A DNA stretch of 64,000 nucleotides from Eledone cirrhosa (taxonomy: Eukaryota): positions 3,224,001-3,288,000 of the forward strand of contig OZ024760.1 in assembly GCA_964016885.1 (NCBI GenBank). Direction: 5' to 3'. The notes beneath the pieces are model-generated. The model saw only the letters and a program-made list of their open reading frames with translations. It did not search any database and was not told the DNA's origin. Positions 5,200 to 24,205 of the stretch are shown one piece after another; the stretch's first letter is position 1; each line of letters begins with the position of its first letter. Made by a program: the position numbers and the translations under genes.

Positions 5200-5582
5200 T
5201 ACACACACACCTATCCCTACACAAACACACACACACATATATCCTTACTCACACACACACACCTATCCTTACTCACACACACACCTATCCCTACACACAC
5301 ACACCAATATCCTTACTCACACACACACCTATCCCTACACACACACACACACCAATATCCTTACTCACACACACACCTATCCCTACACACACACATATCC
5401 TTACTCACACACACACCTATCCCTACACACACACACATATCCTTACTCACACACACATCTATCCCTACACATACACATATCCTTACTCACACACACACCT
5501 ATCCCTACACATACACACATATCCTTACTCACACACACACCTATCCCTACACACACACATATCCTTACTCACACACACACAC
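5200..5582. repeat. Minisatellite of CCTATCCCTACAC / ATATCCTTACTCAC units
   Basis: Alternating short units separated by (CA)n. Confidence 0.9.
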
Positions 5583-6648: not shown

Positions 6649-6710
6649 GGTAAGTTATTCCGGGTTGAATCGGAGGTAACCACAGTAAGTAAGGTACTCA
6701 ATACATAGCA

Positions 6711-6762
6711 GAGTTCCTGATGATTTCTAAAGAATGAAACAGTTCTAGTCCTGTAGAATCTC
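6711..6762 (+). ncRNA. Type I hammerhead ribozyme motif (family 1), predicted cleavage after GUA at 6755
   Basis: GAGTTC-CTGATGA-T-TTC-taaa-GAA-T-GAAA-CAG-ttctagtc-CTG-TA-GAA(T)CTC. Intact CUGAUGA and GAAA boxes and three helices. Homologous copies at 13850-13903 and 14707-14756 keep the stems with different loop II. Confidence 0.65.
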
Positions 6763-6792
6763 ATCTCTCTCTCTCTATATATATATATATAT

Positions 6793-6982
6793 AACGAAGG
6801 AAATGTGGTAAGGAACCAGATGGACCATAACGCACCAAAGTACTCAATACTTAGGGTAGTAGAGTGGGTAATAGGAACAAGTATGACCCCGACGGCAGAG
6901 CTCAAGCCGTTTCGACGGCTAATTCAGTCCAGAATTAGTCGTCGAAACGGCTTGAGCTCTGCCGTCGGGGTCATACTTGTTC
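6793..6982. mobile_element. Foldback short element (family 2) containing hammerhead 3' half, in (TA)n
   Basis: Arms GAACAAGTATGACCCCGACGGCAGAGCTCAAGCCGTTTCGACGGCTAATTC and its near-perfect reverse complement around AGTCCA. The right arm reads GAAA-CGGC-ttgagctct-GCCG-TC-GGGGTC. Confidence 0.8.
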
Positions 6983-6995
6983 ATATATATATATG

Positions 6996-7230
<235 letters not shown>

Positions 7231-7641
7231 GTGTATGAAATCACGTGACCAACACCCTGCTGTGGTGGAATGTCTCTGTTCAGGTTCTATTTTCCCTGGG
7301 GACACTTCACCTCATTTATTTCCCTTAGTTATGTCAGTTTGAGGTGTTGGGGACACAGGGTCAACCTAATGTAGGTAGGGGAGGGGACAACATTGGCCAG
7401 TCCTGATCGGATTGCTGACATTCACACATACATATTCACAGAACACACACATATATACACATGCATATCCACAGAAGATACGCATACATATATACACATA
7501 CATATACACAAAACACACACATACAGAAAGGCATGCATATGTATGCATATTCACACAACACACACATATATATATACACACACACATAAATGTATATATA
7601 TATATATACTTGTTCCTAAATATATATATATATATATATAT

Positions 7642-7840
7642 AGGAACAAGTATGACCCCGACGGCAGAGCTCAAGCCGTTTCGACGGCTAATTCTGGACA
7701 TTGAATCCAGAATTAGTGTCGAAACGGCCTGAGCTCTGCCATCGGGTCATACTTGTTCCTATTATCCACTCTACTACCCTAAGTATTGAGTACTTTGGTG
7801 CGTTATGGTCCATCTGGTTCCTTACCACATTTCCTTCGTT
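7642..7840. mobile_element. Second foldback family 2 element, inverted relative to 6793-6982
   Basis: Short arm first, long arm second; sequence is essentially the reverse complement of 6793-6982. Flanked by (TA)n. Confidence 0.8.
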
Positions 7841-8189: not shown

Positions 8190-8300
8190 ACGAAGGAGAT
8201 GTGGTAAGGAACCAGATGGACCATAACGCACCAGAGAACTCAATACTTAGGGTAATAGGAAAATGTTTAACCCCGACGGCAGAGCTCAAGCCGTTTCGAC
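8189..8300 (-). mobile_element. Family 2 element copy
   Basis: AACGAAGGAGATGTGGTAAGGAACCAGATGGACCATAACGCACC...CCCCGACGGCAGAGCTCAAGCCGTTTCGAC, between (TA)n and (TCAC)n. Confidence 0.8.
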
Positions 8301-13769: not shown

Positions 13770-13950
13770 CTCGAGGGAAAAAAACCCACAGTTAGATAAA
13801 GTACTCAATACGTTAGTAGAGAAGATATTTATTTATTTCATATAGAAAGAACTCCTACAAGACTAGAACTGTTTCCGTTTTATTCGTTTGAAATCATCAG
13901 GGGATTTCAAACGAACGAAACAGTTTTAGATGTCATTTCTATATGAAACA
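13770..13950 (-). mobile_element. Family 1 hammerhead element with foldback
   Basis: Minus strand CC-CTGATGA-TTTC-aaac-GAAT-(aaaacg insert)-GAAA-CAG-ttctagtc-TTG-TA-GG, then AATAAA and ATTGAGTACT. An inverted partial copy GATTTCAAACGAACGAAACAG follows at 13903. Confidence 0.65.
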
Positions 13951-14356: not shown

Positions 14357-14480
14357 CAAAGAGGGTGTGGTAAGATACCAGGTGGACCATTACGCACTAG
14401 AGTACTCAATACTTAGGGTAGTAGAGTAGGTAATAGGAAAAGAGTCAGGACCCCGGCAGGTGAGTTCCGGCCGTTTCGAG
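14357..14480 (-). mobile_element. Family 2 element copy
   Basis: GTGTGGTAAGATACCAGGTGGACCAT..GAGTACTCAATACTTAGGGTAGTAGAG..GGACCCC..GGCCGTTTCGA, next to (TA)n. Confidence 0.75.
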
Positions 14481-14627
14481 TCTTTTCATATATATAATAA
14501 ACTATATTATACTATATTTTTCTGGCAATATTATAACATGTCTCTCCCCAAATATATATATATAGATATATGTATATATATATATAACCTGTTGATTTAC
14601 ACTTCTTGTTTATATATATATTATTTT

Positions 14628-14776
14628 ATCCCAGGTTCAATCAGGGGTAACCACAGTAAGTAAGGTACTTACTACATTGCAGAGTATATATATTTAATAT
14701 AGAAATGGCTTCTACAGGACTAGAACTGTTTCATTCGAAGGAAATCATCAGAAGACCCCCGCCCCAGTAAAAGCCA

Positions 14777-23913: not shown

Positions 23914-24205
23914 GGGTGGTGGTGGTGGTGGTATTGCTGGTGGTGGTGGTGTTGCTGGTGGTGGTGGTGTTGCTGGTGGTGGTGGTGGTGTTGCTGGTGG
24001 TCGTGGTATTGCTGGTGGTGGTGGTGTTGCTGGTGGTGGTGGTGTTGCTGGTGGTGGTGGTGGTGTTGCTGGTGGTCGTGGTATTGCTGGTGGTGGTGGT
24101 GTTGCTGGTGGTGGTGGTGTTGCTGGTGGTGGTGGTGTTGCTGGTGGTGGTGGTGTTGCTGGTGGTGGTGGTGTTGCTGGTGGTGGTGGTATTGCTGGTG
24201 GTGGG
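23914..24205. repeat. 15/18-bp (GGT)n-GTT-GCT minisatellite
   Basis: GGTGGTGGT(GGT)GTTGCT units. Confidence 0.95.

Follow-up and report, generated by a model that had tools for sequence, protein, structure and literature searches.

The window, i.e., the whole stretch of 64,000 nucleotides of Eledone cirrhosa DNA that was analysed, contains a type I hammerhead motif at 6711..6762, located both by reading of the sequence and by a descriptor scan. An earlier note on this DNA, made from the sequence alone, had placed the motif here and listed its elements (CTGATGA, TTC/GAA, GAAA, CAG/CTG and GUA), and both position and elements were found as described. On the forward strand, the core box C3–A9, CUGAUGA (CTGATGA in the DNA), occupies 6717..6723. 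It is followed at 6724..6735 by stem II, which consists of U10.1 (6724), TTC (6725–6727), the loop TAAA, GAA (6732–6734) and U11.1 (6735), i.e., three base pairs, UUC/GAA, with a U10.1–U11.1 mismatch and a variable 4-nt loop. The segment 6736..6755 (also forward) comprises the GAAA box (6736–6739), helix III (CAG at 6740–6742 with CTG at 6751–6753) enclosing an 8-nt loop with a CUAG palindrome, and a GUA triplet that ends at 6755. From the hammerhead consensus, the cut site of this copy is predicted to lie after 6755.

The motif belongs to a 116-bp two-armed insertion flanked by microsatellites. The hammerhead arm (6714..6766, forward strand) is a 5′-truncated 3′ end of a larger element: it starts within stem I, stops 11 nt past the predicted cut site and gives way to (TC)n(TA)n. 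The other arm (6651..6714, reverse strand) is inverted and corresponds to the last 64 nt of the 3′ “tail” extension of the element, with 98.4% identity over 64 nt when an ORF-bearing copy (L084) was compared, by its 3′ end, with the window by blastn; the window copy and the ends of the copies with an ORF share 96–98% identity. The 5′ strand of stem I that has been retained (6713..6716, forward strand) is a junction G followed by the native TTC, and its partners are GAAT at 6756–6759. Stem I of this copy thus has three Watson–Crick pairs and one G–U pair, the G being contributed by the inverted tail, whereas native stem I is AGAUUC/GAAUCU, with 6 bp, of which three pairs remain. The earlier note had called the motif intact, with the caveat that the outer part of stem I might come from an adjoining inverted tail. 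The caveat was right, in that the end of the tail at 6714 supplies the outer bases that had been assigned to stem I, and “intact” does not hold for a clipped, 116-bp two-armed stub with half of its native stem I pairs. Searches with the ORF of the element (tblastn and blastn) found no coding partner within the 64-kb window. From the alignments and predicted folds, the window copy is almost certainly the clipped end of a Penelope-like retroelement and probably an inert stub.

The descriptor scan returned three motifs from both strands of the window, exactly the set that had been noticed before: the copy at 6711 and two homologues on the reverse strand. One homologue, of a sister subfamily (14626..14751; 84% over 128 nt), has the core, a loop II of CTTC, GUA at 14713 and a tail, and its motif (14751–14713) has two stem I pairs left, U–G and U–A. 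The other (13786..13901; 73% over 116 columns) is more diverged, with the core at 13900, GUA at 13856 and a tail; it too has two stem I pairs (CC/GG), which are located at the inversion junction, and a 6-nt insertion separates its stem II from GAAA. Adjacent to it, on the forward strand at 13903..13929, is a short inverted partner arm with part of the core, stem II and helix III. Neither homologue is intact. The co-change of the first stem I pairs (TC/GA versus CC/GG) that had been read from them depends on a junction, as the CC/GG pairs lie on the inversion junction of the 13900 copy. Because of the two-pair stems I, the junction position of CC/GG and the 6-nt insertion, the three window copies alone are weak evidence of covariation, which is supplied by the genome-wide families considered below.

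Several other repeats lie in or near the window. A second repeat family with the same arm layout is present at 6795–7135, 7640–7830, 8200–8300 and 14360–14480; its arms carry no more than a hammerhead's 3′ half, namely GAAA, a helix III in which there is a GAGCUC palindrome, and GUC. In longer copies elsewhere (L193, L194 and L197) the motif is complete; stem II is long there, G10.1–C11.1 is present and stem I is of CCC/GGG type. The tails of both families contain a GTATTGAGTAC-like word (window 6704, 6850, 7078, 7783, 8246, 13811, 14412 and 15474), and the coral element Hydra-2_Amil has a close counterpart of it 3′ of its hammerhead (excerpts of PMC8557442); possibly, the word is a shared end signal. 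The proposal that a downstream GTATTGAGYAC is common to published PLE ends was rejected: it was found in coral Hydra-2_Amil, and the places listed by a search of the supplement of PMC8557442 included no other Hydra 3′ ends. A 27-bp satellite (about 1,036 copies) fills 36351–64000 and runs at least 10 kb past the window, and a 36-bp satellite (about 134 copies) occupies 23915–28758; the long open frames that these two satellites create were not genes by any test applied. In the 10 kb before the window (L207:4003–5583 and 2292), there are an inverted pair of endonuclease-region fragments, 31–34% identical to the ORF, and, on both strands, a hammerhead motif of another family.

Abundance and covariation of the motif

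The exact pattern of the motif has 21,013 matches in the 3.0-Gb genome and its reversed control has none, and therefore the motif occurs far beyond chance. A looser pattern gave 29,041 matches (4 in the control) and a pattern with a short loop III gave 2,399 (control 4). The variation of loop II that had been seen among the window copies extends to the genome, where loop II varies freely among the 100 matches listed from the exact-pattern search; with a loop II so variable, no conserved tertiary contact between loop II and helix I is evident from the sequences. The matches with a short loop III represent further hammerhead families, with different stems and often with a fully palindromic helix III, at L118, L124 and L131–L158. 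In the exact-pattern count and in each of the flank counts given below, matches on the plus strand exceed those on the minus strand by about 1,700–2,100 (e.g. 3,180 versus 1,511); the excess points to at least one very large array in which the hammerhead end is repeated in tandem.

The comparison with hammerhead models that the earlier note had proposed was negative, in that no Rfam hammerhead family scored: no Rfam hammerhead model was matched among the 150 of 165 rows listed, six loci gave no match at gathering score, and a further Rfam search was likewise negative. Matches to Rfam microRNA models were rejected as microsatellite artefacts, being below the models' own gathering scores.

Covariation, another check that had been named, was found. 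The set consisted of 58 distinct motif strings from all loci sampled by then, junction copies included. Watson–Crick pairs were present at stem I positions 1–3 in 53, 52 and 46 of the 58 strings, and at stem II positions 2 and 3 in 53 and 55, values reached in 0 of 5000 shuffles, with two to four pair types per position. Stem II position 4 was weaker (48/58; 65 of 5000 shuffles as high). In a second set of 23 hand-picked rows (20 family representatives and the 3 window copies), 91% of the cells pair, as against 34–42% in slid controls, and two-sided changes occur at all six stem I pairs (0/500 shuffles). Thus, covariation of stems I and II is seen between families of the Eledone genome, with compensatory changes in both, on counts from a few related families and with shuffles that ignore relatedness. 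As the search patterns fixed the core and helix III, the invariance of these parts follows from the search itself, and helix III is uninformative for covariation. Position 17 had been left free in the pattern, and is A in 33, C in 16, U in 9 and G in none of the 58 strings: an NUH triplet is kept in every family examined. The CUGANGA, GAAA and NUH elements of the family are set among three helices, of which helix I is open-ended.

Position 10.1–11.1 behaves differently from the stems. It is U–U in 34 of the 58 strings and shows no sign of pairing, since 615 of 5000 shuffles were as high. Because 14 of the 26 Hydra rows in table S2 of Craig et al. (2021, PMC8557442) carry U–U, the mismatch is a trait of the Hydra clade and no defect peculiar to the window copy; in other PLE hammerheads, G10.1–C11.1 is described as highly conserved in the excerpts of Cervera and de la Pena (2014, PMC4209133). 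The mismatch that had been flagged as a caveat for the window copy is thus present there, as a property of Hydra-clade hammerheads in general. A literature search found no assay of a U10.1–U11.1 hammerhead.

A Penelope-like host element

The motif is almost certainly the end of a Penelope-like element (PLE). Downstream of the motif, two loci (L013 and L028) run into a reverse-transcriptase (RT) reading frame. A DNA search with this coding region gave 2,332 candidates, of which 40 were scored, and all 40 were full length with 94–100% identity to the coding region. Thirty loci were fetched, and in 17 of them the ORF (~713 aa, RT–endonuclease) starts unbroken for 711–714 aa. Among the 20 of these 30 for which 10-kb stretches were taken, 16 have the motif 174–175 nt before the ATG and 16 have it, in sense, 2.0–6.9 kb after the ORF stop; it was missed in L070, L071, L076 and L079, of which L079 contains a gap in the assembly. 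The order of parts in a full element is tail, ORF, a TA/TG-rich spacer of 2–7 kb, a conserved end of 460 nt, the hammerhead and ~22 nt, and it is an upstream copy of the 460-nt end that puts a hammerhead 175 nt before the ATG. Thus, the first host that the earlier note had offered, a Penelope-like terminal repeat, was correct, as the motif flanks the RT–endonuclease ORF on both sides. Of its “self-cleaving RNA family”, what stands is a genome-wide family of type I motifs; a free-standing family is not supported, the window copy being the truncated end of a retrotransposon. In one ORF-bearing copy (L084), the 200 nt after the ORF stop resemble a decayed duplicate of the true 3′ end of the element (L084:2866–3075 versus 5235–5495; alignment score 101.5, as against a maximum of 91.5 and a mean of 64.8 in 300 shuffles) in which the hammerhead core is lost. 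Possibly, the 3′ end became longer when a microsatellite and a second end were captured.

The ORF comprises an RT, a CxCx5C linker and, at its C terminus, a GIY-YIG-like domain. In its translation, RWR is at residues 38–40 (a conservative change from RWK), DKT at 116, YRDD at 347, the linker CNCLNKEAC (CxCx5C) at 566, CDLC (CxxC) at 666 and CMH (CxH) at 694; no CCHH was seen in it by eye. The copy at L032 has VY...YIG, and L064 has YIS where other copies have YIG. Pfam GIY-YIG matched one ORF piece weakly, with an E value of 0.062, and a full-length relative (P0054) with an E value of 1e-5, and did not match L064; Pfam RT did not match the ORF. Among 7,994 scored candidates, 1,396 were full-length relatives at E≤1e-20, and of the 120 listed, 113 have CxCx5C and none is a named relative.

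The features given for the Hydra clade in excerpts of PMC8557442 are a single ORF, DKT, RW[KR], CxCx5C and a C-terminal endonuclease with CxxC and CxH. The same source describes insertion into (TA)n, a type I hammerhead at the 3′ end, a pseudo-LTR, an inverted arm and a tail, in all of which the Eledone element is alike: insertion into (TA)n, the pseudo-LTR and the inverted arm with tail are all present in the sampled loci (an inverted partner is upstream of 19 of 31 motifs), and a comparison by eye showed the ORF and published Hydra proteins to be colinear. Since every testable Hydra feature was found, the element appears to be a Hydra-clade PLE, a placement made by motifs and by-eye comparison. 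Identity with Naiad was rejected on account of the C-terminal position of the endonuclease and the DKT motif. Judged by their protein and hammerhead sequences, which differ, the family is set apart from Hydra-1_Obim of Octopus bimaculoides (PMC8557442, excerpts). It is thus a new PLE family, young, ORF-intact and with more than 13,000 motif copies, of a type that has already been published; a search of published papers found no description of it.

The family also has features of its own. Its units are about 4.3–9 kb, owing to a long microsatellite-like spacer in the 3′ UTR, whereas Hydra units are “generally <3 kb”; loop III has 8 nt, as against 1–3 nt in the Hydra rows; the tail has about 67 nt, as against 30–40 bp in the legend to Fig. 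2; and stem II of 3 bp and a motif count above 21,000 also differ from published Hydra (all comparisons with excerpts of PMC8557442). Helix III of ACAG/CUGU with a GUA site is found in the Nematostella, Saccoglossus and Acropora rows of the same source as well. With the PLE hammerheads described in excerpts of PMC4209133, the Eledone motif shares type I motifs in terminal repeats, mostly as single truncated copies, as well as close opposite-strand pairs, a palindromic helix III suited to dimers and a proposed circular template. The motifs described there have a long helix II with G10.1–C11.1 and little or no helix III, whereas the Eledone motif has a 3-bp helix II with U–U, and a helix III of 3 bp with an 8-nt loop; the highest count per genome given there is about 9,000. 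From the canonical Rfam Hammerhead_1 type, the Eledone motif differs in having U–U in place of G10.1–C11.1 and in matching no model.

Insertion ends, folding and cleavage

The layout of the window copy, i.e., two arms with a tail on only one of them, in TA repeats, recurs in the sampled loci, and is the layout given for PLEs in the legend to Fig. 2 of Craig et al. (2021, PMC8557442). At the 3′ side, none of 30 loci selected by core ends at the cut site: all 30 insertions carry sequence across it, and the ends of the elements cluster ~22 nt or ~90 nt after it. At the 5′ side, copies end abruptly, immediately 5′ of the core. Among 31 distinct motifs of the subfamily, taken from the sampled loci, the native flank is lost 6 nt or less from the core in 13, at 7–20 nt in 3 and at 21–100 nt in 2, and all 13 motifs broken within 6 nt have an inverted partner (paired arms are not independent, and represent about 9 events). 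Genome-wide, with 33 fixed bases in each pattern, there are 13,360 matches to the core plus the 3′ strand of stem I, 8,378 to a pattern including the full 5′ strand and 4,691 to one extending to 13 nt upstream; if only the minus strand is counted, so that the plus-strand excess does not enter, the same three patterns have 5,791, 3,303 and 1,511 matches. Thus, among minus-strand copies with an intact core, the native flank is lost within 6 nt in 43% and within 13 nt in 74%, part of this fall-off being due to variant native flanks and point changes. Either an RT stop at helix I or joining by microhomology, at the near-palindrome GATTC, could account for the breakpoints.

Predicted folds give no positive support for cleavage. 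The hammerhead was never the best predicted monomer fold in this PLE family, and z-scores were near 0. In copies with native flanks, the hammerhead was predicted to lie 2.4–3.7 kcal/mol above the best monomer fold, and in the window copy 13.7 kcal/mol above it. Helix III can pair between molecules, via its CUAG palindrome, at 12 of 16 positions, and two other families allow such pairing at 10 of 10. In L007 and L013, both with native flanks, the dimeric hammerhead was predicted at −19.6 and −21.8, as against −17.0 and −16.6 for two separate best monomers, with a non-hammerhead dimer lower still (−25.2). For the window copy, the dimeric hammerhead was 14 kcal/mol above two monomers. The window copy is therefore predicted to misfold rather than to take the shape of a ribozyme. 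Pairing of the core with its downstream flank was considered as a general conserved switch and was rejected, as it is absent from most other families: shuffles as strong numbered 5 and 14 of 500 here and 58–471 of 500 in the others, one having 19.

Lunse et al. (RNA Biol) are said to have reported cleavage of small PLE hammerheads as dimers. In the excerpts of Cervera and de la Pena (2014, PMC4209133), a minimal monomer does not cleave and dimers cleave at a low level, and a review agrees that the minimal monomer is uncut and dimers are cut at low levels, citing Lunse et al. Cleavage that is real, and weak or assisted by dimer formation, is probable for the longer Eledone copies.

The route to an insertion may be pictured in this way. 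Following published work on PLEs, a transcript that runs from the upstream repeat through the element would carry two hammerheads, which would pair via helix III (the CUAG palindrome), probably forming a dimer, and would slowly cut after GUA. Cleavage would free a unit-length RNA, which may be circularised. The endonuclease of the element would nick a TA microsatellite, and the RT would copy the RNA from ~22 or ~90 nt beyond the cut site; as such a template spans the cut site, it would have to be uncut or re-ligated. Usually the RT would stop early and two arms would be joined head to head, leaving thousands of tiny ends.

Alternative readings and significance

Taken as a whole, the explanation that we consider likely is that of a PLE end, of which the window copy is a clipped example that is predicted not to fold. 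A different account holds that the motif is kept as a structural end signal, e.g., for RT or endonuclease binding, priming or the joining of arms, with no meaningful cutting. The U–U closure, the 3-bp stem II, the variable loop II and the unfavourable predicted fold would all suit such a signal, as would the pile-up of 5′ breakpoints at stem I; the metazoan PLE hammerheads that have been assayed cut poorly in vitro (PMC4209133, excerpts), and Naiads spread without canonical hammerheads (PMC8557442, excerpts). The 30 of 30 sampled insertions that span the cut site fit it too, but are also explained by re-ligation or slow cutting, and the NUH kept in every family examined and the self-complementary helix III are explained by cleavage chemistry and by dimer formation. 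On balance, a purely structural role seems rather unlikely.

Much less probable is a non-autonomous retrozyme, i.e., that a tandem non-coding RNA circle, and not the end of a coding element, gave rise to the window copy. Animal non-LTR retrozymes do derive from PLE terminal repeats (bioRxiv 10.64898/2026.07.22.740005, excerpts), an origin that the Eledone end shares, and at one Eledone locus the same end forms a similar tandem array: at C1:83,679,785–83,691,720 (83.68–83.69 Mb; L204 and L205) there are 12 tandem non-coding units of 1.03–1.11 kb, all of them 3′ ends that include the hammerhead and a tail, and the plus-strand excess hints at more arrays. This retrozyme-like array may have just arisen. 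The one array examined, however, directly follows an ORF-bearing element and interleaves two alternating unit variants, which fits expansion at the DNA level; and the window copy, unlike the retrozymes described in that source, is single, with its 116 bp matching the end of a coding element. The least credible reading is that the window copy is itself active as a ribozyme, thanks to bases gained at the junction, and acts on a transcript of the host. No change is seen in its core, stem II, helix III or GUA, and the G–U pair is gained from the junction, but it has only four contiguous stem I pairs, its predicted hammerhead folds are unfavourable both as monomer and as dimer, and it is one among more than 20,000 similar inserts.

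With the clipped PLE end as the preferred reading, the Eledone finding is mainly one of annotation, as hammerheads at the ends of Hydra-clade PLEs have already been published. The role of PLE hammerheads is treated as an open question by Craig et al. (2021, PMC8557442, excerpts). One idea, which we hold tentatively and with more doubt than belief, is that U10.1–U11.1 hammerheads of the Hydra clade are an active variant in which helix I is also the site of RT stops and arm joining. If this were true, a second role of helix I would explain the 43% and 74% loss of flanks and a genome full of ribozyme-sized stubs. As test material, the family is of modest value: it offers intact ORFs, natural tandem units, the U–U variant and a sharp cluster of breakpoints at helix I.
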